36,095 nt of DNA from Candidatus Micrarchaeota archaeon (GTDB taxonomy: Archaea; Micrarchaeota; Micrarchaeia; Norongarragalinales; Norongarragalinaceae): positions 1 to 36,095 of the forward strand of contig JBBIMI010000008.1 of NCBI GenBank assembly GCA_037444485.1, written 5' to 3'. Both the position numbers and the translations under genes were made by a program. The notes under the pieces are model-generated. The model worked only from the letters and a program-made list of their open reading frames with translations. It made no database searches and was not told where the DNA came from. This document shows, in pieces, positions 11,858 to 35,979 of the stretch (positions are counted from its first letter, which is position 1; each line of letters begins with the position of its first letter).

Positions 11858-12397
11858 TTACTGCGCAGCTTGTTCTTGCTTCTGTTGTTGCTGTGGTTGT
11901 TGCTGCAGTTTTTGAAATATTTTTTTTTCGATTCTAGTAAAAACGAGTTCTACGAATAAACCGGCGAATACAGTCGCGTAGATGAACAAGCCGCGCGCGC
12001 CAAGCCAGTTTTTCCATGGTTGCCAGAACGCAATCGATGAAGGCACCGGGAACGGCATGTTTGTAAGAATGTAGTTTGAAAACAACGCTGGCAGGATGAA
12101 GTAAAAGATTACGAACCACAAGGGCAAGATTAACACCATCGTGCGCATTGGCAGGAGAGTCATTTGCTTCATGTGATCCATCATTTCCTTTTCACGCGCG
12201 CTCAACTCCTTGATTTTCGCTTCGTCCTTCCGCGCATAAGCGTCTTTCAACTCTTTCTGGTACTCGTTGACTTTCTTCTGTAAGTCTCTAACCTTGTCGC
12301 GGTGTCCGATTTTCTTGTTCAAGTAGTAAGAAAAGAAGGCGAACGCTATCGCGAAAACGATTATTTCGATAGTTTCGACTTCACTCAAGTAAATCAC
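11858..12397 (-). CDS. DUF106 / EMC3-TMCO1 family (Oxa1 superfamily) membrane protein
   Basis: TM-coiled coil-TM-TM layout; conserved position between secY and L34e. Confidence 0.88.
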   Translation of the reverse strand: MIYLSEVETIEIIVFAIAFAFFSYYLNKKIGHRDKVRDLQKKVNEYQKELKDAYARKDEAKIKELSAREKEMMDHMKQMTLLPMRTMVLILPLWFVIFYFILPALFSNYILTNMPFPVPSSIAFWQPWKNWLGARGLFIYATVFAGLFVELVFTRIEKKIFQKLQQQPQQQQKQEQAAQ

Positions 12398-12445
12398 TCA
12401 AGTAAAACGCGTTCTCTCCGACAACCATTAATTGTTTAACGTTGT

Positions 12446-13879
12446 TCAACGCACTAGCTGCTTTAGTGCTGGATACATTTCGAATAATTGTTGCTGCGCA
12501 AGGTCCTCGTAAAAGCGGTAGATTATTCCGACAGTCAAGAGAATGCCTGTGCCTGTGCCTAACGCGCCAGTAATGTCTGCAAACCAAGCTAGGACGCCAA
12601 CGAAAACACTCCCCAAAATCGTTATTACTGGAATATAGCGTTCAAGAATCTTTTGCGTAATGCGCGGGTCCTGCCTGAATCCCGGAATCTGTAGTCCAGC
12701 GCGTTCGAGTTGCGCCGCGACGTCGGCAGCGCCCATTCCAGTGCTCTCAATCCAAAACCATCCGAAAATAACGCATAGAATCACGAGGGCGATTCCGTAA
12801 ACGAGAATGTGCAGCAACTCGTTCGGCTGCGTTACGAGCTGCAAGTACGCCGGGTAACCGCCGGGAACCAGTAACGGCGACGGCAGCGCGGTAATATAGT
12901 AAACTGGTCCTGCGACCGGCTGGTTGTTTTGGTAAGTGCCGAAAAAACTTTGCTTCAAGCCAGGCGTGCCTGGAACCGGAGTCGCGGTAAACAATCCCAT
13001 TAGTTGAAAATTCAGCAAAACAGCGCTCGCGAGAATTACTGGAATGTTGCTCACATACAAAAACTTTATTGGGTAACGTGCACCTAACCCACGCGCTCGA
13101 CCGTACGCGAGTGGGAGTTCTATCTTCATTCCCTCGACGTACACCACTACCATGAAAACTATTATTGTGAAGAGAATTGGCGCGAAGTTCCAAACCGCAT
13201 TCGCAACGTCGCCGCTAGCAATCAAGTAAAAAGCGTTGGGAATTAGTCCTTGCGGTATTCCGGTAGCGCCTGGCGCGAGGCTGAACGCGCCGACAAAAAC
13301 AGTTTGGCTCACACCTGCTGCGATGAACAGCGAGATTCCGGAGCCTATTCCGTACTTCTGCACCACCTCGTCTAGGTACAACAAGATGATAGAACCTGCC
13401 GCGAGTTGCAGGACGAGAAGGAATTGAGTCAAGAAAAACGAGCCGAGAATCGTATTCGCTGTAGAAGCAGGCAAGTAACCGGAAAACACGTATACTCCGG
13501 CTTCAAAGAAGCTCAACGCAATCGACAAGAGTTTTTGAAGCCCTTGAAACGCTTTCTTGTGTTCTGGATTACTCAAATCAAGGGAAACGAGTTTCGCGCC
13601 TACAGCAAGCTGGAGGAAAATGCTTGCGAGCACGATGGGACCGATGCCGGTTGTAATGAGTGTTCCAGTCTTGCTTCCCAACAAAATGTCAAGGCGTTCA
13701 AACTGCGTCAAGCGCGACGCGTCGACGCCGATCGGGTAAATCTGGCCTAGAACGAAGAACAAGAGTAGTGCAGTGATCGTCCAACCAAGTTTTTCCTTCA
13801 ATCCCGGAATCCGTTGCGGGCGCTTTACTTCAGGCAGGATTGACAGTAAAGGCTTTAACGCGTTTAACAAAACAATCAA
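12446..13879 (-). CDS. secY: Preprotein translocase SecY
   Basis: GIGPIVLASI, LDEVVQKYGIGSGISLFIAAGV, YPIKFLYVSNIPVIL, IPGFR, GTGTGILL. Confidence 0.99.
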   Translation of the reverse strand: MIVLLNALKPLLSILPEVKRPQRIPGLKEKLGWTITALLLFFVLGQIYPIGVDASRLTQFERLDILLGSKTGTLITTGIGPIVLASIFLQLAVGAKLVSLDLSNPEHKKAFQGLQKLLSIALSFFEAGVYVFSGYLPASTANTILGSFFLTQFLLVLQLAAGSIILLYLDEVVQKYGIGSGISLFIAAGVSQTVFVGAFSLAPGATGIPQGLIPNAFYLIASGDVANAVWNFAPILFTIIVFMVVVYVEGMKIELPLAYGRARGLGARYPIKFLYVSNIPVILASAVLLNFQLMGLFTATPVPGTPGLKQSFFGTYQNNQPVAGPVYYITALPSPLLVPGGYPAYLQLVTQPNELLHILVYGIALVILCVIFGWFWIESTGMGAADVAAQLERAGLQIPGFRQDPRITQKILERYIPVITILGSVFVGVLAWFADITGALGTGTGILLTVGIIYRFYEDLAQQQLFEMYPALKQLVR

Positions 13880-13903
13880 TCCTCACTAATCAATCCTCTT
13901 CAC

Positions 13904-14332
13904 TCACACGATACTAACAGTTCCGCCCGCAGCCGTTATTTTCTCGACAGCCTTTTTCGAAAAACCTGACGCGCGCACCGCAAGCTTTACAGTCACTCTA
14001 CCTGAAGACAATACCTTGAACCCCTCCAAGTTTATAGAGTAAACGCCTTGCGCGTCTGGTTTGAACTCGCCTGCCGCGATTTTTTTGTTCAACTGTTTTA
14101 ATGAAATCTCGTTGAGCGTCTTGCGCGTCGGATTGAAAAAACCCTTGTTCCCGCGCTCCCGCTGACTCGTTCCCTCGAACTTGATTGTGTGAAGCCACTT
14201 GTGCTTATGAAAACCAGCTCTCCCCACGCCGCCGCGGTTGCCTTTCCCACGCCTATTCTTCGCGTTACCCCCGCCGAAACTGCGGTTGCCTAAATAACGC
14301 TTTCTCTTCTTGCTTTTTATCCGCCTAGCCAT
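13904..14332 (-). CDS. rpl15: 50S ribosomal protein uL15
   Basis: RRGKGNRGGVGRAGFHKHKW, FSKKAVEKITAAGG. Confidence 0.97.
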   Translation of the reverse strand: MARRIKSKKRKRYLGNRSFGGGNAKNRRGKGNRGGVGRAGFHKHKWLHTIKFEGTSQRERGNKGFFNPTRKTLNEISLKQLNKKIAAGEFKPDAQGVYSINLEGFKVLSSGRVTVKLAVRASGFSKKAVEKITAAGGTVSIV

Positions 14333-14368
14333 TCTACATGAACCACTCTCAACCCATTTTAATGCAAT

Positions 14369-14761
14369 TCATTTAATGTTGATTGGAAGCATTGCTTTAA
14401 GCAAGTCGTTAATTGCCTTGCCGCGGTAGCCGAGAGCTCCCTTCGGAAAACGCTTTTTAATTCCGCCCTTTAATCCCTTGCGAGGAGGCTGCAGCCGAAA
14501 AACCTTTCTGCTTCCCTGAAGCGCTTTAACTTTTTCTAGCAACGCGATAGTCTCGTCATCAACTTCACCCCAAGTCACGTAATCGCCGGTTTTCTTCAAC
14601 ATGCTTTTCGCTTTGTCAGCGTTTACGAGAACACAATGGTTTTTACGCGTCAAACCCAATTGCTTTAAAGCGCGTTCAACGTCGCTCCTAACACCCACCC
14701 TACCGCGAACGCGGATTACTGCAAGCAAACAATCTTTGTTTCCGCTTTTTTCTTTATCCAT
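14369..14761 (-). CDS. rpl30: 50S ribosomal protein uL30
   Basis: LAVIRVRG, DYVTWGE, FRLQPPRKG, GALGYRG. Confidence 0.96.
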   Translation of the reverse strand: MDKEKSGNKDCLLAVIRVRGRVGVRSDVERALKQLGLTRKNHCVLVNADKAKSMLKKTGDYVTWGEVDDETIALLEKVKALQGSRKVFRLQPPRKGLKGGIKKRFPKGALGYRGKAINDLLKAMLPINIK

Positions 14762-14823
14762 AACGAAAACCAAAAATTTTTCGATAAAGTTTCGATAAAT
14801 TAAGAAATTAAGAAAAATAATTT

Positions 14824-15525
14824 TTAAACGCTTTCCGCCCCCGCTTCTTTAACGCTCGCTTCTTTAACGCTTTCACTCACGCTTTCGCTTGCACCTTCTC
14901 CGCTTTCCTTACCTTTCTTTAAATGGTTGAGCGAGTCAAGCGCGTTTATCGTGGCGAGAACTATATTCAGAATGTTTCTCGTTCTCCCTCGGCTGAAAGT
15001 CCAAGCGTCTTCAACGCCGGCGAACTCGAGCACTTTCTTAGCGATTTCGCCAGCGACTAAGCCCACGCCCCGCGGCGCTGGCTTGATGAGAATCTTAGTG
15101 CTTCCATTGCTTCCGCGCACTTCCTGAGGCAACGAGTGAGGCAAACCGCATCCACACTCCCACGAACCGCAACCCAAACTTACTTTAATCAAGTGTTTTT
15201 TCGCATCGAGGATCGCTTCCTCAATCGCGTCCCTGCTTTCGAAAGCCTTGCCCACACCAACGCCTACAAAGCCGCTGCTTCCGAGCAAGACGACCGCGCG
15301 CATCAATTGTTTTCTCCCGCTTCCACTCATTCTCTGCGTGCTCGTGACTTCAAGCACTTCCTCTTTCTTTTGTCCCTTCAACAAAAAATCGATTATTTGC
15401 GGTTCCAACACTTTCTTCCCGGCAGCTAGTACTTCCTCGAGCGAAGTTATTTCGCCTGCCAAAACCTTTTTTCCTAAAACAGTTTTAGGAACCCATTCCC
15501 CATCGTTTCTATTTGTTTGAACCAT
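14824..15525 (-). CDS. rps5: 30S ribosomal protein uS5
   Basis: WVPKTVLGK, GCGSWECGC, PAPRGVGLVAG. Confidence 0.98.
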   Translation of the reverse strand: MVQTNRNDGEWVPKTVLGKKVLAGEITSLEEVLAAGKKVLEPQIIDFLLKGQKKEEVLEVTSTQRMSGSGRKQLMRAVVLLGSSGFVGVGVGKAFESRDAIEEAILDAKKHLIKVSLGCGSWECGCGLPHSLPQEVRGSNGSTKILIKPAPRGVGLVAGEIAKKVLEFAGVEDAWTFSRGRTRNILNIVLATINALDSLNHLKKGKESGEGASESVSESVKEASVKEAGAESV

Positions 15526-15531
15526 TTCACT

Positions 15532-16035
15532 TCAACCTGCAAGAATTTTTTGCTTCACTTCAAGAAAACTTTTTTGAACAGCTTCAGCCAAATGCTTTCC
15601 TTCAATGCGTTCTGCGCTCGGCATGATTTCTTCAGCGAAATTAGTTGCAAGCCCGGCGTCCACCGCGCCCTTCAAAGCAGCGAACAAAATGCTTCCCTTT
15701 GAAGCAGAATGCAGTCCAGCGTCTAAAACGAATTTTTTCACGCCTTTCGCTAGCGCGCGTTTGCCAGCAAGCAAGCCAGTCAAGTACGCTGAAGGCGTGT
15801 TGCACTTTCCCGCAAAACCTGACTTCCGCAACTCGCGCGAGCAAGCAGCCGCTATTGTTTTGTCGCCTTTCTCGCCGAATTCCACGAATTGAACGTAGAA
15901 AAACCTGTTTGACTTTCGCGCGACCAGCCGCGGTAAACGACTTTTCAACAATGCCAAGCGTTTTTTGTAATTCGTCTTAAACAGCCTGCGTCTCTTGAAG
16001 TGAACCACGTACAACGCTTGCTTAGCTCTCTTCAT
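15532..16035 (-). CDS. rpl18: 50S ribosomal protein uL18
   Basis: KTNYKKRLALLKS, RLVARKSN, NTPSAYLTG, KGAVDAGL. Confidence 0.97.
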   Translation of the reverse strand: MKRAKQALYVVHFKRRRLFKTNYKKRLALLKSRLPRLVARKSNRFFYVQFVEFGEKGDKTIAAACSRELRKSGFAGKCNTPSAYLTGLLAGKRALAKGVKKFVLDAGLHSASKGSILFAALKGAVDAGLATNFAEEIMPSAERIEGKHLAEAVQKSFLEVKQKILAG

Positions 16036-27723: not shown

Positions 27724-27900
27724 GCGAACACCGCCTTCCAGACAAACAAAAATCAATCTCGATAGATGCTAAAAAACACGAATTACTTCCAATAAAGCTT
27801 GAAGCGAATCCACACTAAAATTAGTTTAAACGCGGAAAAACAGCGTTCAACTAACGCGCTTGCATTCTCCAAGCTCAAGAAAATAAAATGCGCGTACGGC

Positions 27901-27917
27901 TTATTAAACCTTTTCCA
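27901..27917 (-). promoter_or_regulatory. BRE-TATA, probable promoter of the rpoP-rpl3 operon
   Basis: GGAAAAGG-TTTAATAA on minus strand. Confidence 0.5.
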
Positions 27918-28004
27918 CGAAACCCGCGCTGCGAAAAAAATTAATTAAAATGATTCCGTTTCAAGAAAGCAGCTTGCTGCACCATTACCTTCAACATAAA
28001 GCGT

Positions 28005-28415
28005 TCATACGACTTTTTTCTTGTATTCCTCGCGTATTTCTTGCGTCAAGCGAAGCGCGTCGGACTGCACTAAAAAAAGTTTTTTCTCGACTGCAGCCAT
28101 CTTTTCCTTGAATTGCTTGACTTTATTCGCGTCAAGCCGGTTTTTCTTTTTCGACAACACTCCTTGCTTTACTAAAGAGTGAAACTCGTCTGCTTGTAGG
28201 ACGAGTTCTTCGAGCTCGAGCGCGACCGTCACGACGTCGAGATTTAAGAGAAAAATTTTCTTGTTCAAGTAATCGCTGAAGTACTGGTTGGCGCCTAAGT
28301 GCTGCGCGAAGTCGGCGAGCACGCGCAGCGAGTCTTTGAAGCCGCTGATTTTATCCAAATGCAAGCCGTACTCGCACACGAGTTCCTTCTCTATTTGTTG
28401 TTCTAACTTGCGCAC
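28005..28415 (-). CDS. Hypothetical helical/coiled-coil protein
   Basis: 136-aa ORF, GTG start after GGGGTG, host-like codon usage; no recognised motif. Confidence 0.7.
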   Translation of the reverse strand: MRKLEQQIEKELVCEYGLHLDKISGFKDSLRVLADFAQHLGANQYFSDYLNKKIFLLNLDVVTVALELEELVLQADEFHSLVKQGVLSKKKNRLDANKVKQFKEKMAAVEKKLFLVQSDALRLTQEIREEYKKKVV

Positions 28416-28439
28416 TTTAACACACCCCGATTTTTTCAG

Positions 28440-28553
28440 AGCCTCTGAGGGGATTTGAACCCCTGACTTCGTGCTTTACGGCGTCACGCCACGCATTTTT
28501 TGAGGGGACGCTGGTTACCATGCACGCACTCTGCCAGTCTGAGTTACAGAGGC
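28440..28553 (-). tRNA. tRNA-Thr(GGT) with 40-nt canonical intron at 37/38 (28476-28515)
   Basis: Acceptor GCCTCTG/CAGAGGC-T; anticodon stem CGTGC/GCACG; BHB central helix ATGG/CCGT. Confidence 0.9.
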
Positions 28554-28664
28554 GACGTAAAAGTTTTTTGATAAAGGTTTTTTGATAAAGATTATTAACA
28601 ACGATGTATAAAATGATTTACTTGAAAACATTCTGTTTTTTACTTCGAAAAGGGTTTAAAGTTT

Positions 28665-28823
28665 ATGGGAAAATTTCCGATTGCCGACAAAGCGTTGCTG
28701 CAAGTGTGGATTTGCCGCAAGTGTAAAGCCCGCAATCCGCGCGGCGCCGAGAAATGCAGAAAATGTTTTTCAACGCACTTGCGTCCCAAGCGCGCGAAGA
28801 AGAAGGAAGCGAAAGGCAAGTAA
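28665..28823 (+). CDS. rpl40e: 50S ribosomal protein eL40 (not in ORF track)
   Basis: MGKFPIADKALLQVWICRKCKARNPRGAEKCRKCFSTHLRPKRAKKKEAKGK. Confidence 0.95.
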   Translation: MGKFPIADKALLQVWICRKCKARNPRGAEKCRKCFSTHLRPKRAKKKEAKGK

Positions 28824-28891
28824 GCACGCCGCCGAAAGCAGTTTAAACTAGTTTTATTAGCGCGAGCAACACAAATTATTTTTGGTTTGGC

Positions 28892-29013
28892 GCAGGGGTG
28901 GCCGAGACCGACGTAAACGCGAATGATTCCGGCGGCGGCAGCCTGGTCAAAAGCGCAGGACTTAAGATCCTGTGAGGTTAGCCTCTTCGAGGGTTCAAAT
29001 CCCTTCCCCTGCA
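28892..29013 (+). tRNA. tRNA-Leu(TAA) with 35-nt intron at 15/16 (28907-28941)
   Basis: Acceptor GCAGGGG/CCCCTGC-A; CAGGA-CTTAAGA-TCCTG; variable arm GAGG-TTAG-CCTC; BHB central helix GCCG/CGGC. Confidence 0.9.
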
Positions 29014-29091
29014 CTCTACTCTTAGAAGCGTGTTGGAAGCAGGAAGAGAGTAAAAGAGTACTCGTTTCACGTTCCCAGCTTTCGAAGTCAT

Positions 29092-29733
29092 TCAAGCAAT
29101 TCTCTCGTAATAATCTAGATTTTGGCTTACGCTCTTCGCGTAAGCGTAAGGCTTTGCTTTGCCTGAAGAAACCGGGCAAAACATTCTATCGCCAGCGCTC
29201 GCGGTGCAGTGAACGTTTCGAGGCCCAGCGTTGTAAGCGCAAAAACCGTAAAACAAGTTGTTGTCACATAATTGCAAGTATTTGGCTAAAATCTTGGCGC
29301 CGCAGTGGACGTTCGCGTCCACGTTCCACAACTGGTTTGACTCGAGCCCGCACTCGCTGCGGCCAGTTGCAGGCAATATTTGCATTAACCCGACTTCGTA
29401 ATCCCCACCGAGTGAAGTCGCGTCAAACCCGCTTTCGCGTTTTATGATCGCGCAAATTGCGTAAGGGTCTATCTTGTAAAACTCGGCTGCTTTTTGAATA
29501 ATGGAATCCACCATGCTGCCTGGAATGAAGCCATTCCTCGTTTTTACTGTCGCGGGCGCGCACTTGACAACTTCTTTCCCAGTAGACGGCGGCTTTAAGT
29601 CGGCAGGCAGCGGCTTTACGACGCTTGGCAAGTAGTCAAAGCGAATCACGAGCTCGTTGAAGCCAGCTGCTGAAAAATTGTTCAACAAAAGCAAGAGCAC
29701 GAGCGCAACTGCAAGCGCTTTAGTCGATTGCAT
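29092..29733 (-). CDS. Secreted lytic transglycosylase (SLT / GH23 lysozyme-like domain)
   Basis: Signal peptide; AIIKRESGF (catalytic Glu-Ser), GLMQILPAT, NVHCGAKIL and AYNAG motifs in SLT family order. Confidence 0.92.
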   Translation of the reverse strand: MQSTKALAVALVLLLLLNNFSAAGFNELVIRFDYLPSVVKPLPADLKPPSTGKEVVKCAPATVKTRNGFIPGSMVDSIIQKAAEFYKIDPYAICAIIKRESGFDATSLGGDYEVGLMQILPATGRSECGLESNQLWNVDANVHCGAKILAKYLQLCDNNLFYGFCAYNAGPRNVHCTASAGDRMFCPVSSGKAKPYAYAKSVSQNLDYYERIA

Positions 29734-29789
29734 GAGGAATGAAGAGAATGAGGAAGTTAAAAAAGATTTTGAAAAAAAGAAAAAAAGCG

Positions 29790-30076
29790 TTTTACTGCCC
29801 GCGCTTACTTAATCGAACTTGCTTTATCGATCATACTTTAATAAGCTACGCTTAAAGGTGAAATTCCAGTAATTTTAGTATGCTGCCCAGCTTGCGTTGA
29901 CGGAAACCATTGTCTTTGCGCGTATAACGCGAGGCGTCGAGGCCCGCGCCGCCCACGCGAACGAAGCCAACCGCCCCGCAGGCGCCTGCAAAAACCGGCA
30001 AACAAGCGAAGCGAAACAATTACAAATATTAGGGTTGATTCGTCCCGCGACTGAACTCGCGGAATTTCTCAACCAG
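29790..30076 (-). ncRNA. Putative structured non-coding RNA of unknown family
   Basis: Multiple helices with many G-U pairs on the minus strand, an 8-bp long-range pairing and a downstream oligo-T tract; no convincing ORF. Confidence 0.45.
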
Positions 30077-30099
30077 ACATGTTTAGTTACTGTGTTTAG

Positions 30100-30429
30100 T
30101 TACTGGATGTACTTCTTGAGCAATTCGACAGCGCGTTTTATGCTTTGCGCAATTTGCCGTTCGCTCTTCGCGCCCGAGCATATCACCTTGCCGTTCTTGA
30201 AGAGCAAGAGAGTAGTTCCGATTTCCTTTAACCGCATTATCGCGCCCGGAAATTGTTCCGGTTCGTACTCGACGTTATTCACTTTCATCGCGATGTTGAA
30301 TAAGTCGAGTTCCACGTTCAAGTTCGCGCTCGCCACGATGTTTTCGACTTTGAAGCTCGTATTGATTTTCCTGCGAACTCCCTTCCTGGTTTTAACGATT
30401 TTTGTTCCACCCACTTCGCCGCCCACCAC
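30100..30429 (-). CDS. Single-repeat TATA-box-binding-protein (TBP)-like protein
   Basis: One TBP repeat: ENIVASA, YEPEQFPG, LLLFKNGKVICSGAK; in-frame stop upstream at 30487-30489; own TATA-like TATTAAAA at about 30456-30463. Confidence 0.9.
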   Translation of the reverse strand: MVGGEVGGTKIVKTRKGVRRKINTSFKVENIVASANLNVELDLFNIAMKVNNVEYEPEQFPGAIMRLKEIGTTLLLFKNGKVICSGAKSERQIAQSIKRAVELLKKYIQ

Positions 30430-32020: not shown

Positions 32021-32835
32021 GAGGAAACCGGGCGAAAAAAAAAGCGAAAAGGCGAAAGCTTATTTTCAAGAGCAAGCCGAGCAAGGCGTTAAGCCAAGTT
32101 TTTCTCGTAGACCGCGAGTTCGTGGAAAAAACAGCGGACGCGCTGCCACTTAAAGGCAAGACCGTGCTTGAAATAGGTGCTGGCACTGGAGTGCTTACGA
32201 GCGCGCTCGCGCGCAGAGCAAAACGCGTCATCGCGCTCGAAATCGACTCGCGGCTGCGCGAACAACTCTTGAAGCGGACTGCAGAGTTCAAGAACGTTGA
32301 AGTGAACTTCGTCGACGCGCGAAAATTCGATTTCGCTGGTTTCAAAACTATTTTCGGCAACCTTCCATACCATGCGAGCACGCCCCTCTTGTTAAAGATT
32401 CTGGAAAGCGATTTCGAGGAAGCCGTCTTATGCCTGCAGAAGGAATTCGCGGAACGCCTGGTCGCGCAGCCGGGCTCACGCGACTGGTCGCGGTTAAGCG
32501 TTGCAGCGCAGGCGAACGCCGACGTCAAAATCCTCTTTGAAATTCCGCGCTTTGCTTTCACGCCCGTCCCGAAAGTCGACAGTGCAGTCGTGTTTTTAAA
32601 GAAAAACAAGAAATTCGAGCTTGACGCAACACTCGTGAACGCGTTGTTCCAACACAAGAACCAGACAGTCAAAAACGCTTTGCTTCACTCGACGCGCGCG
32701 CTGGGTTTGAAAAAAAAAGCGCTGCTTGCTGCGCTGGAGAAAATTGGGAAGGAAAAAGAAAAGAAAGTTAGGATGCTCACGCTTGGAGAACTGACCGAGT
32801 TGACCAGCCGCTTCAAGAACAGCCGGCCACGCTGA
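32010..32835 (+). CDS. ksgA: 16S rRNA m6,2A dimethyltransferase KsgA/Dim1; ATG 32010 appears separated from the main frame by a slip in an A9 run
   Basis: KALSQVFLVD motif lies upstream of GTG 32122 in the same frame; VLEIGAGTG, GNLPY, QKEFAERL, FTPVPKVDS. Confidence 0.92.
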
Positions 32836-34210
32836 TTGTCCGCGTTTCGGAAACTCCGGCATTGCCTGCAGCGTCGGCAGCGTACACCTTGTAGGAATAG
32901 CTTGTCACGCTGCAGTTTGCCGCAATCGTCTCGCTTTCTTCAAAGTTCATTCCGGTTCCAGTCATAGTCTTATTAAAGCCGTTCCACTCAAGCGTTGCTG
33001 AAGCTACTGACTCCGAAATCGTCACGTTAATCGTGACCGACTCGTTTGCCGAAGTGTTCGAGTAAGCGTTTGCAGGCGTTGGAGAGACGAACGTCACCGT
33101 CGGCGGCGTGGTGTCGATGTGCAGCGTTCGGTTGCTTGAGGCGAAAGCATTGTTGCCAGCCGCATCGAAGCAGCGCACGTTCCAAATGAACGAGCCTTGG
33201 GTGGCGAACGTGTAAGCAATAGAATTAGCAGTGTTGTTGCTTATGCTCGTTATCGTCTGCACCGCGCTCCAAGGACTGGTCGTGTTAACCCACAAGCTGC
33301 AGTTCGCGAAAGCGTTGTTGTCTACGGGCGTGAACGAGAAAAGCTGGCTTAACGCTTCAGACTGCGAGTTGTCCGCAGGCGAGTTGAGAGTCACCGTCGG
33401 CGCAGTAGTGTCTGGACCTGCTGTTGTAGTGAAAGTGTAATCCTGTGAAACGCCGCATACTGTGGTAGAAGAACAACTCCAAACGCGGTAGTGGTAAGTA
33501 GTGCTCGCAGCCAATCCAGTGACGTTAACATGGTGGCTCGTCACTCCAGTCTCGCTGGAATTACTCACGTTAATTCCGTAACTCGTGCTTAACCCGTACT
33601 CTACTTTCGTGTCCGAACTCTTGTCAGTACTCCAAGTAATGTAAGCACTCGAAGAAGTAGTGGAAGCAGTTACAGAAGAAATCGTGGGCGGCTGCGATTC
33701 ATTAACTTGAATAGTTACAGTGACAGTGCATGAAGCGCTGTCTGCGCTCGCGCTCGCGGTTTGCGTTGTTGTCGAAGTAACGTTCGCGTAATGGCAAGTG
33801 CGTCCAGCGCCGTTCTGCGCAGAAATTTCAACTGTTTGCCCGGAATCAGAAGAAGTACACTTCATTAGCGCGCTAGTCACGTTTGAAGGCTTGTTGTAGA
33901 AAGTCGCGAAAATCACGCTGTCAAAAGGACCAACTGAAGAAGCCGGGTTTGCTGTTATGGTGCACGAGAATGCTGCTGGCGAGGGAGAAGGAGAAGGAGA
34001 AGGAGACGGCGAGGGGCTGGGTGAAGGAGAAGGACTCGGCGACGGGAAGAGAGTGACTTCGAGCGTTGGAGAAGGACTCGGGCTAGGTGAAGGTAGAGTG
34101 ATTGGTGAAGGCGAGGGAGTAGCACTCCATTGTTTTTCTTGAAGGCAACCGAACGCGAGCAAAGCCGCGCCGACTACGAACAAAGCAACTAGTTTGTTTC
34201 CGAAACTCAT
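32813..34210 (-). CDS. Surface lipoprotein with Pro/Ser linker and FN3/Ig-like domains
   Basis: ATG 34210, lipobox LLAFGC; (SP)n tract; ITWSTD..VEYG..GLAASTTYHYRV FN3-like; DTTAP/DTTPP and DAAGN Ig-like repeats. Confidence 0.85.
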   Translation of the reverse strand: MSFGNKLVALFVVGAALLAFGCLQEKQWSATPSPSPITLPSPSPSPSPTLEVTLFPSPSPSPSPSPSPSPSPSPSPSPAAFSCTITANPASSVGPFDSVIFATFYNKPSNVTSALMKCTSSDSGQTVEISAQNGAGRTCHYANVTSTTTQTASASADSASCTVTVTIQVNESQPPTISSVTASTTSSSAYITWSTDKSSDTKVEYGLSTSYGINVSNSSETGVTSHHVNVTGLAASTTYHYRVWSCSSTTVCGVSQDYTFTTTAGPDTTAPTVTLNSPADNSQSEALSQLFSFTPVDNNAFANCSLWVNTTSPWSAVQTITSISNNTANSIAYTFATQGSFIWNVRCFDAAGNNAFASSNRTLHIDTTPPTVTFVSPTPANAYSNTSANESVTINVTISESVASATLEWNGFNKTMTGTGMNFEESETIAANCSVTSYSYKVYAADAAGNAGVSETRTISVAGCS

Positions 34211-34437
34211 TTTTTCCTTACCTCTCCAAGAATTCTTTCCAAAACGCTTGACCCTCCCTTTTCTGGAATCACGAGCCAAGCGATCAAGTACAACAACGCT
34301 CCGAAACCAAAACTCAAGAGCGTCAAGACAACCCACACCAAGCGCACTAGCGTCGGGTCGACGTTGAAGTACTCGCCGATTCCCCCGCACACGCCTGCAA
34401 TAACCTTATTCTTTTCGGATAAAAAAAGCTTTCGCAT
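34207..34437 (-). CDS. pspC: PspC domain protein
   Basis: KVIAGVCGGIGEYFNVDPTLVRL...LYLIAWLVIP. Confidence 0.93.
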   Translation of the reverse strand: MRKLFLSEKNKVIAGVCGGIGEYFNVDPTLVRLVWVVLTLLSFGFGALLYLIAWLVIPEKGGSSVLERILGEVRKK

Positions 34438-34446
34438 TCTTCAAAA

Positions 34447-35979
34447 TCACCCGCTCGCCTTCACCTTCGCGCCCGAAGCGGTTTCCGCCTCGAGTTCAGC
34501 CGGCTTGACGCGCTCCAACTCCTTACTCAACGAGTAATTTAATTCCCAGGTCGCGCCTTTCTTCAACTCGCCCTTCCTCCAGACCAACACGGTTCCGGAA
34601 ATCGTTTCCTTCACGCGCTCGGGCGCTTCGCTGTAATCGCTTGCTGAAACTTCTTCAGGCAAGTAATCCGTCAATGCGAGATTCTTCAAATCCGCGCGGC
34701 GGTTTGCGACGAGCAAACGAACGCTCTTGCCGTCGACAAACTTCCGCACGCGCACGACCGCGTAAAACAACTTGTACCACAAAAACGCGAGCAACGCGAC
34801 CAACAAAAACAATAATGCGAGCCACTCGGGCGCGACTCCCAGAAAAGCGAATCCAGTTACAGGCTCCACGCGCTCACCCAACTCGCCCAACGCAAGCGAA
34901 GGCGACGGCGTCGCGCGCGAAACCACCCGCGCCTTCTTCACCACCCCGCCGAACTCTACGCTCCACACTCCAGGCGCGTCGAAAAAGAATTCCACGCACC
35001 CGTCGTACAACTCACGCGAAAACACGCGGCCGTCAGGCGAGCGAATGACAATCCCGCCGCGCGCTGGCGAGCCGCCCACGAAAACGCAAACGCGCTGCGT
35101 CCCGACCTCGAACACTTCCAGAATGCGCACGTCAATCACTTCAAGCGACGGCGCAACCGACGGCGAAACAGAAGGCGACGGCGACGCAACCACAGACGGC
35201 GAAGCCGACGGCGATGCTGAAGGCGAAACGCTAGGCGAAGGAGAAGGCGTTGGTGAAACTGAAGGCGTCGGAGAAGGGGATGGCAAGGGGGTTGGAGAAA
35301 TTGAAGGAGAAGGCGAAGGAGATGGAGAGGTTGAAGGAGATGGGCTGGGACTCGCTGAAGGCGACGGTGATGGAGACGGAGTAGGAGAAGGACTTGGAGA
35401 TGGAGTTGGGCTAGGCGATGGGCTAGAAGAAGGCGACGGGCTTGGAGAAGGCATCGGAGTTTGGCTGGGAGTAGGAGACGACGACGGTGCCGAACTATAA
35501 TCGTAACTTATGGCAACGTCATATACGTAGTGAATAAAACCTGAGTTGATATTTCTGACTCCAAAGATTATAGAATTATCTGATTGTCGGTATATATCTC
35601 CGCATAATGTTCCGAAATTAGTAGTTGTTTGATCGTTTGATGGAAGCGAATAAATTGTAATGTAATTACCATCATTTTTCTTTAGTACATATGCTTTGTC
35701 ACCAGTGCCAGTGGAGTAGACTGTGACACAATTAAGCACACTATTTGTTGGTAAAGAAATAGAAAAATCTGCTCCTTCATTTAGATCTGAAACAAAACGC
35801 CAAAATGTTGTAGTATCATTTATTTGATTGTCAATAGCCGTGTTGGGAGTCGTACAACCAGGTGGAAAGCATTGAGGATCACCAATATACTGCCAAGAAG
35901 TAGGGTGAATTGGGCCAACAAAAGTGCTTGAAACAAAACTTATGAGGAATAGTATTATGGTAGAGGATACATATTTCAT
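34447..35979 (-). CDS. Single-pass surface protein: variable N-terminal domain, long Pro/Ser/Thr linker, beta domain, TM helix, C-terminal domain
   Basis: Signal peptide; roughly 115-aa SP/TP repeat; TM WLALLFLLVALLAFLWY. Confidence 0.8.
   Translation of the reverse strand: MKYVSSTIILFLISFVSSTFVGPIHPTSWQYIGDPQCFPPGCTTPNTAIDNQINDTTTFWRFVSDLNEGADFSISLPTNSVLNCVTVYSTGTGDKAYVLKKNDGNYITIYSLPSNDQTTTNFGTLCGDIYRQSDNSIIFGVRNINSGFIHYVYDVAISYDYSSAPSSSPTPSQTPMPSPSPSPSSSPSPSPTPSPSPSPTPSPSPSPSASPSPSPSTSPSPSPSPSISPTPLPSPSPTPSVSPTPSPSPSVSPSASPSASPSVVASPSPSVSPSVAPSLEVIDVRILEVFEVGTQRVCVFVGGSPARGGIVIRSPDGRVFSRELYDGCVEFFFDAPGVWSVEFGGVVKKARVVSRATPSPSLALGELGERVEPVTGFAFLGVAPEWLALLFLLVALLAFLWYKLFYAVVRVRKFVDGKSVRLLVANRRADLKNLALTDYLPEEVSASDYSEAPERVKETISGTVLVWRKGELKKGATWELNYSLSKELERVKPAELEAETASGAKVKASG

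Follow-up and report, generated by a model that had tools for sequence, protein, structure and literature searches.

The gene at 29092..29733 (minus strand, ATG start; open reading frame call and PF01464 match) encodes a predicted secreted, single-domain, disulfide-stapled SLT/GH23 enzyme of 213 amino acids, which we hold, at a probability of roughly 60%, to cut the glycan strands of peptidoglycan and so to breach or weaken nearby bacteria, not to feed on their wall sugars. Positions refer to the window, the whole stretch of 36,095 nucleotides of archaeal DNA that was analysed. A single SLT gene alone is ordinary. The added result is positional: an order-wide slot with exchangeable heads, which sharpens an open question about how DPANN archaea live.

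The host genome (G000) comprises 961,727 bases and is 95% complete. In a single-gene tree the rpL3 of the window falls within a 22-row clade (SH-aLRT 98), alongside the named genomes LFW-144_1, placed in Candidatus Norongarragalinales by PMC8561730, and LFW-156_1, for which the same text says ‘possibly’. On this single gene, the host groups with Ca. Norongarragalinales, Micrarchaeota. The only named close homologue of the SLT protein is NYZ78220.1 (61%), from a Ca. Micrarchaeota archaeon.

The predicted enzyme and its residence in the genome

A PF01464 search, the check proposed with an earlier sequence-only reading of this DNA, gave a match well over the cut-off (E 4.9e-19, 68.5 bits against a gathering cut-off of 21.3; residues 78–175, 29209..29502, minus strand). 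It was the sole Pfam match; no wall-binding domain was found in the protein, and none of the NCBIfam equivalog cut-offs was reached. A 136-row alignment bears out the SLT motifs that the same reading had called intact: E100-S101, G115-L-M-Q118 (29380..29391, minus strand) and A166-Y-N-A-G170 (29224..29238, minus strand) are all present, and E100, S101, G115 and Y167 are invariant. The predicted catalytic Glu100 (codon 29434..29436, minus strand) aligns with the ES of LtgA, and in the AF2 model E100-S101 stands at the end of the central helix (residues 90–101). The available text of PMC2976769 describes the catalytic role of that Glu in GH23, as well as the role of Asp97 in g-type lysozyme.

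The N-terminus is signal-like by hydropathy, as had been claimed, with a single hydrophobic stretch (residues 3–22, Kyte–Doolittle peak 3.5) and no second one; the predicted Sec-type signal peptide takes up about residues 1–23 (29665..29733, minus strand), with its cleavage site inferred. A short leader (residues 24–34) and a Pro-rich linker of variable length (residues 35–57) follow (29563..29664, minus strand; low pLDDT in the structure model). The AF2 model, which was built on 136 rows and replaced a 5-row model of pLDDT 56.9, has a mean pLDDT of 87.7; in it the signal and linker are loose and residues 60–212 are mostly confident. A lysozyme-like, Slt/MltE-like fold is predicted. The best Foldseek matches are LtgA, Slt, MltC and MltE (E 5e-7 for LtgA and Slt), with g-type lysozymes and the Ralstonia GH23 chitinase lower, and profile scores for the Slt type (144) and chitinase (37) are more than 100 bits apart.

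The count of eight Cys residues made earlier is correct (58, 94, 128, 144, 156, 165, 176 and 186), and their probable pairing was drawn from co-occurrence in 130 homologues. C128 and C144 occur together in 53 and alone in 0, C165 and C186 together in 19 and alone in 6, and C58 and C94, a weaker pair, together in 4 and alone in 10; C156 would pair with C176 by elimination only. Around the predicted cleft, the protein departs from most of the 130 homologues at G109 (Ser in 119), Y112 (Gly in 123), E113 (Ala in 119) and P195, which replaces the Thr (117) of the C-terminal T-x-x-Y, of which Y198 is kept (Tyr in 122). D111 and E113 add acids to the hairpin region before GLMQ and are invariant in the five closest proteins; the position two after GLMQ is Leu120, a register that we take to correspond to Asp97 of goose lysozyme. 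Because the cleft residues are altered, chemistry or activity may differ, and the protein could be either a lytic transglycosylase or a muramidase.

Few proteins make up the close family: four at 60–89% plus P0256, and P0257 and P0108 at about 40%. An alignment-A1 search of genome and metagenome contigs confirmed no close relatives, and P0257 as query returned one useful locus, L046, among 57 loci. Three unlabelled SLT proteins (P0112, P0113 and P0134) have a hydrophobic stretch at the N-terminus, resemble the window family in the acidic hairpin that precedes GLMQ and lie near that family in one tree (82/85). At a wider scale, PF01464 matches occur in 101 of 401 sampled Micrarchaeota genomes (95 over cut-off; the tally includes unpublished G028) and an order-level SLT profile matches in 43 of the 68 genomes of the order, so SLT is common in such archaea. 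G000 itself has a second SLT gene (G000:C14:16875-18251, plus strand; L001 1072-2448), the 458-amino-acid MltD-like product of which has a basic N-terminus, an RRxFL-type motif and a hydrophobic stretch, and groups with other SLTs of the order outside the slot.

The possibility that the gene is an artefact or a recent passenger, on a chimeric contig or as a phage or plasmid gene that landed at a tRNA, has been largely refuted already and is very improbable. The gene does adjoin a tRNA 3′ end, and phage tails commonly carry SLT domains, but contigs from two studies bridge it to L40e and tRNA-Leu, which rules out a chimera. A single contig from run X1, which may be the source sample, is identical over 27800-29959; another from run X2, of a different study, covers 28631-29730 (L40e, tRNA-Leu and SLT) at ~95% identity, with 49 other letters and an in-frame 21-nt deletion in the linker, and is independent support for this linkage. 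Synteny is identical at locus L046. The integrase, att repeat and viral neighbours of phage or plasmid cargo were all not found here: a profile search of the genome, which is 95% complete, found no PF00589, the SLT gene is not flanked by any att-like copy of the 3′ end of tRNA-Leu (T-arm matches lead to other tRNA-like places only), and 16 other window ORFs have no PHROG match at 1e-5, in agreement with the earlier remark that phage and integrase genes are absent nearby. The phage matches listed for the SLT protein are 33–43% identical, and 0 of 50 cover 80% of it.

Composition also speaks for residence. Codon-usage score and GC3 stand at the 29th and 55th percentiles of 504 genome ORFs of at least 200 amino acids, and the third-order Markov score at the 35th percentile of 600 random windows, so that codon usage, as had been noticed, and short-word composition are within the range of the genome. 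A TATA-like TTTTAA at −29..−24 from the ATG (29757..29762, minus strand; upstream-region statistics) matches the element previously reported about 25 nt upstream. TTTTAA starts peak at −32..−29 in 206 upstream regions of the genome, with the SLT site at the edge of the peak; among upstream regions it ranks at the 72nd percentile by score, a value that 2.6% of 504 coding windows attain. It is probably the promoter of the SLT gene itself, which would then be leaderless.

A chromosomal slot with exchangeable heads

In the window, the gene order is archaeal ribosomal-protein cluster, RpoP, a gene for a 136-amino-acid protein, intron-containing tRNA, L40e, tRNA-Leu, SLT, one-repeat TBP, L21e, RpoF, DUF655 and KsgA. 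The markers of the slot are the conserved 136-amino-acid protein, which has no Pfam match and stands between a tRNA and RpoP/rpL3 (28005..28415, minus strand), the intron-containing tRNA (28440..28553, minus strand; anticodon GGT (Thr) read from sequence) and ribosomal protein L40e (28665..28823, plus strand); tRNA-Leu(TAA) (28932..29014, plus strand), convergent with the SLT gene, forms one edge. A search for structured RNA near the SLT gene found these two tRNAs and nothing else. Upstream of SLT lies the TBP gene (30100..30429, minus strand; 109 amino acids, one PF00352 repeat), the single-repeat counterparts of which in genus g8 are 77–85% identical. Behind its stop codon, at about 29930-30085, is a dispersed repeat with many copies on other contigs and high contig depth. 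Farther on, 32813-35979 (minus strand) encodes two signal-bearing surface proteins that are syntenic in genus g8, one fn3-like with a Ser-Pro repeat and one of 510 amino acids without a Pfam match.

The layout seen most often in the order runs Trm61, hydrolase gene(s), tRNA-Leu, L40e, tRNA-Thr, the 136-amino-acid gene, RpoP and rpL3, with local rearrangements. Trm61 was located in 62 of the 68 genomes, three times at a contig end, which leaves 59 assessable genomes. A wall-hydrolase or LysM domain occurs in the first two genes downstream of Trm61 in 29 of the 59, from 8 of 11 families, and the slot hydrolases bear signals. Six further genomes have an SLT gene close by and bring the count to 35/59: G000, where Trm61 now lies on a different contig, four genomes of genus g8, which share its order of TBP then SLT, and G373 (SLT 1.3 kb upstream of Trm61). 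In the other 24/59 no hydrolase shows in the slot; every one of the 10 assessable f2 genomes falls here, mostly with an SLT elsewhere. Because 55 picked ORFs were scanned by Pfam and all ORFs by SLT profile and BLAST, the count is a lower bound; its weakest cases are G055 (BLAST only), G196 (LysM and likeness to G402) and G306 (a first gene without Pfam match, with a three-domain hydrolase 2.7 kb on), and G406 was left out. The slot genomes are kin and the counts non-independent, so no p-value is given.

The heads found in the slot differ widely. SLT stands alone in most cases from families f3, f4, f6, f7 and f10. Elsewhere there are M23+SLT fusions (genomes G145 and G147; loci L127 and L132), M23+Amidase_3 followed by SLT (G148; L125), M23 beside SLT (G297 and G417; L142 and L143), NlpC/P60 (G418, G337, G114 and G277; L187, L189, L194 and L134), NlpC+Amidase_3 (G385; L204), GH73-like heads (G242 and G337, and by BLAST G277, G114, G055 and G315; L137 and L187) and LysM with a lysozyme-like domain (G402 and G196; L175). 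As non-homologous enzymes replace one another in the same slot, it is the function, not the protein, that appears to be conserved. The sequence-only reading missed this order-wide slot, which is the stronger feature.

Position is also kept where the enzyme itself has diverged. P0257, the ortholog at L046, occupies the equivalent place, convergent on tRNA-Leu with L40e and the 136-amino-acid gene behind; identity to the window is 36% for SLT, 92% for L40e and 83% for the 136-amino-acid neighbour. These shared neighbours, together with the host-like composition, bear out the earlier view of a domesticated archaeal gene. Of the 39 order genomes with both matches, 11 have SLT no farther than 6 kb from rpL3; among SLT-bearing genomes of other orders the figure is 1 of 50 (chosen from 76, mostly with the strongest matches). 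None of 36 named loci outside the clade, each with at least 5 kb upstream of rpL3, matches any slot protein.

The SLT proteins of the slot are scattered with weak support in FastTree and quick IQ-TREE trees. In a more careful tree, 21 slot rows against 24 others require 6 changes, of which starred branches force none; the other rows mostly have no taxon label, and this tree supports claiming neither monophyly nor a donor. At p-AU 0.058, the archaeal clade for which the sequence-only reading had suggested a phylogeny is neither established nor refuted. Near-duplicate loci and unpublished G028 were left out of the trees, and the careful tree also omits seven slot rows near kept ones. P0257 is sister to the window family in the FastTree and quick IQ-TREE trees and not in the careful one.

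Same-genome paralogues in G337, G225, G277 and G390 share their first post-signal residues and differ in their heads, which shows local shuffling. A loose leader pattern occurs in 20/51 slot proteins against 15/126 of the background; an unsupervised leader search gave no stable register and was driven by Cys. With a matrix from 23 non-SLT slot proteins, 7 of 14 independent SLT proteins score above the background 95th percentile (shuffles 1.4, 0/500); its template was drawn after all sequences had been seen, and the score of the window protein is no higher than background. A slot-wide shared leader is thus no more than a lead.

Several other genes recur around these sites. A secreted protein of ~1,250–1,450 amino acids repeatedly adjoins Trm61 and the slot (G000:C3 about 12047-15934, minus strand; L125 1443-5786; L126, L129, L134 and L144); it is often paired with a membrane protein of 390–520 amino acids, may be a surface scaffold, and had no Pfam or Atlas match. 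Genus g6 has a second hydrolase site at the far end of the ribosomal cluster (L128 11642-14635, L130 10538-14920, L131 5743-8726 and L141 10644-13310), with M23+amidase+SLT proteins of 997 and 1,460 amino acids, and G404 carries YkuD+M23+SLT. In family f2 (L180, L183, L184, L196 and L182), what follows Trm61 is not a wall hydrolase but a Lon C-terminal protease domain on its own, the N-terminus of which is mostly signal-like. Small secreted proteins without a Pfam match occur at L192 3343-3864 and L198 4977-5507, and the C terminus of L125 6647-8488 is similar; judged by eye, all three may be RlpA/DPBB-type glycan cutters.

Substrate and function

Chitin has none of the stem peptides on which M23, NlpC/P60 and amidases work. 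Because the partners and fusions of the slot cut peptide and amide bonds, peptidoglycan would be the shared target; the peptidoglycan substrate assumed in the sequence-only reading is thus supported by association, through positional counterparts fused to or beside M23, NlpC/P60 and amidase domains. For the SLT of G000 itself, in which M23, Amidase_3, GH73, NlpC/P60 and LysM have no match, this argument rests on relatives. GH23 also includes g-type lysozymes and the Ralstonia chitinase, both of which are among the matches of the predicted fold, and this counts against a murein-only reading. Could the substrate instead be chitin or an archaeal surface glycan, of the cell itself or of a host? 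The extra acids D111 and E113 and the archaeal identity of known Micrarchaeota hosts (PMC12892359, available text) would suit such a substrate, but the profile scores favour the Slt type over chitinase and the slot partners are stem-peptide hydrolases, and we consider it improbable.

In the mechanism that we propose, the protein would be exported via Sec, stapled by four disulfides, and released or loosely associated with the surface. Glu100 would cleave MurNAc–GlcNAc bonds and open local gaps. Small single-domain bacterial lytic transglycosylases open such local gaps in murein. The glycan strands of a neighbouring bacterium would be nicked by the enzyme alone or near a pilus contact; three T2SSE/pilus-type ATPases are over the cut-off in G000. 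The target would most plausibly be cells without an outer membrane (monoderm), since an enzyme of 21 kDa would presumably not cross an outer membrane unaided. No Mur ligase (PF08245) was found in G000, so the cell would have no murein or pseudomurein pathway of its own to remodel. AnmK, GH3 and NagB were not found there by profile searches either, and AnmK is over the cut-off in 0/68 genomes of the order; the gain would therefore probably be access to cell contents or removal of competitors, although genomes without AnmK, GH3 and NagB may have unannotated salvage routes. The slot may represent an old inherited function with a catalytic module that is exchanged and evolves quickly, in the manner of a conflict with bacterial targets that themselves change. 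Because PMC12892359, in its available text, argues that Norongarragalinales may be host-independent, competition fits as well as parasitism if the order is so.

Two other uses of a wall-cutting fold deserve weight. The protein might loosen the walls of dead bacteria, with the archaeon or its partners taking up fragments or trapped contents. Habitat records are subsurface and sediment metagenomes, and the enzymes retained across the order are varied, with cutters of glycan and of peptide, as in a degrader; the missing AnmK, GH3 and NagB stand against this, and fast divergence with module swapping would be unexpected for a constant food polymer, which makes such necromass scavenging unlikely. 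Alternatively, the domain may bind peptidoglycan with little turnover and anchor the cell to a bacterial partner, as PMC8204110 proposes in its available text for Woesearchaeota and Pacearchaeota. The substitutions near the cleft and the long or degenerate form of some slot members (L125, 742 amino acids; L207) would agree with attachment, but the catalytic Glu and core motifs are intact, the protein has neither a membrane anchor beyond the signal nor a binding module, and catalytic domains non-homologous to SLT stand in for it in the slot; we regard this as distinctly doubtful. Of the interpretation offered in the sequence-only reading, then, the domesticated archaeal gene and the likely peptidoglycan substrate hold, and scavenging is weakened.

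We continue to prefer an enzyme that weakens nearby bacteria, and the pattern of genes suggests that attack on bacteria is likely a long-standing habit of these archaea. Tentatively, and with the odds against it, we extend this to the whole of Ca. Norongarragalinales as an order that would live by attacking bacteria. Its fixed core-genome slot would hold a polymorphic murein-cutting effector, in which a signal and short shared leader carry an exchangeable head (SLT, M23, NlpC/P60, amidase, GH73 or DPBB-like) tuned to the current prey, with the window gene as the minimal, one-domain form.

Known systems and the question of bacterial hosts

The nearest known enzymes are bacterial family-1 lytic transglycosylases (Slt70, 1qte; LtgA, 5mpq; MltE; MltC; and the small EtgA/IagB types), which the window protein resembles in predicted fold, Glu-Ser, GLMQ, AYNxG and the C-terminal Tyr. 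In contrast to theirs, its cell makes no murein and would have no self-remodelling to perform; its structural matches are 19–24% identical, and it has eight Cys, an altered hairpin and a last Tyr that is not preceded by ET.

That such enzymes point to bacteria is already in print for DPANN, Micrarchaeota and (as M23B) Norongarragalinales, so that the inference of the sequence-only reading has precedent; the surprise that it implied at an SLT gene in an archaeon is smaller, given the 101/401 genomes of the phylum and the same inference in the literature. In their available text, PMC5864196 reports a lytic murein transglycosylase in three acidophilic Micrarchaeota genomes, read as a sign of attack on bacteria, and PMC8561730 extracellular M23B and GH23 in two Norongarragalinales MAGs. 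These cases agree with ours in phylum or order, enzyme class and the guess of bacterial attack, but are, in those portions, single mentions in one to three genomes with no analysis of family, synteny or swapping. As far as their available text goes, PMC8204110 and PMC9723730 read fam00969, large murein-like lytic transglycosylase proteins of Woesearchaeota and Pacearchaeota, as a sign of bacterial hosts or prey, and PMC10936187 makes a similar case for other DPANN. Like the window protein, fam00969 offers an extracellular SLT domain in DPANN; its proteins, however, reach 3,000 amino acids and belong to other phyla, whereas ours is a single 21-kDa domain from Micrarchaeota in a fixed core-genome slot.

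Halophile archaeal peptidoglycan hydrolases that kill bacteria, such as Woldo of Halogranum salarium, are described in the available part of PMC12352652, which counts modular hydrolases in 175 of 3,706 archaea with a patchy, plasmid-biased distribution. They too are secreted, cut walls, derive from bacteria and show domain shuffling, but combine a catalytic with a wall-binding domain, which the window protein does not have, and unlike those patchy genes the slot genes sit among core translation genes across the order. The available main text of PMC12892359 does not mention peptidoglycan, GH23 or transglycosylase. Our literature search, which was thin for subscription journals, found no paper on the conserved slot; the hydrolase table of PMC12352652 may list members of the order.

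All cultivated DPANN archaea live on archaeal hosts (PMC11291902, available text). That some might live on bacteria has been argued at least as far back as 2017 from hints in the form of scattered SLT genes. Compared with these, a slot among core translation genes, found in 8 families and with interchangeable heads, is stronger evidence that cutting bacterial walls is a lasting function of the order and not a matter of stray transfer. With the slot, the question can be put to the test without cultivation: the enzymes are small and soluble and can be tried on walls of several types, the one they prefer would indicate the prey, and the 21-kDa member in the window is among the simplest to try. 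If the order does live by attacking bacteria, bacterial hosts would be known for a DPANN lineage for the first time, and the specificities of its enzymes would name them.
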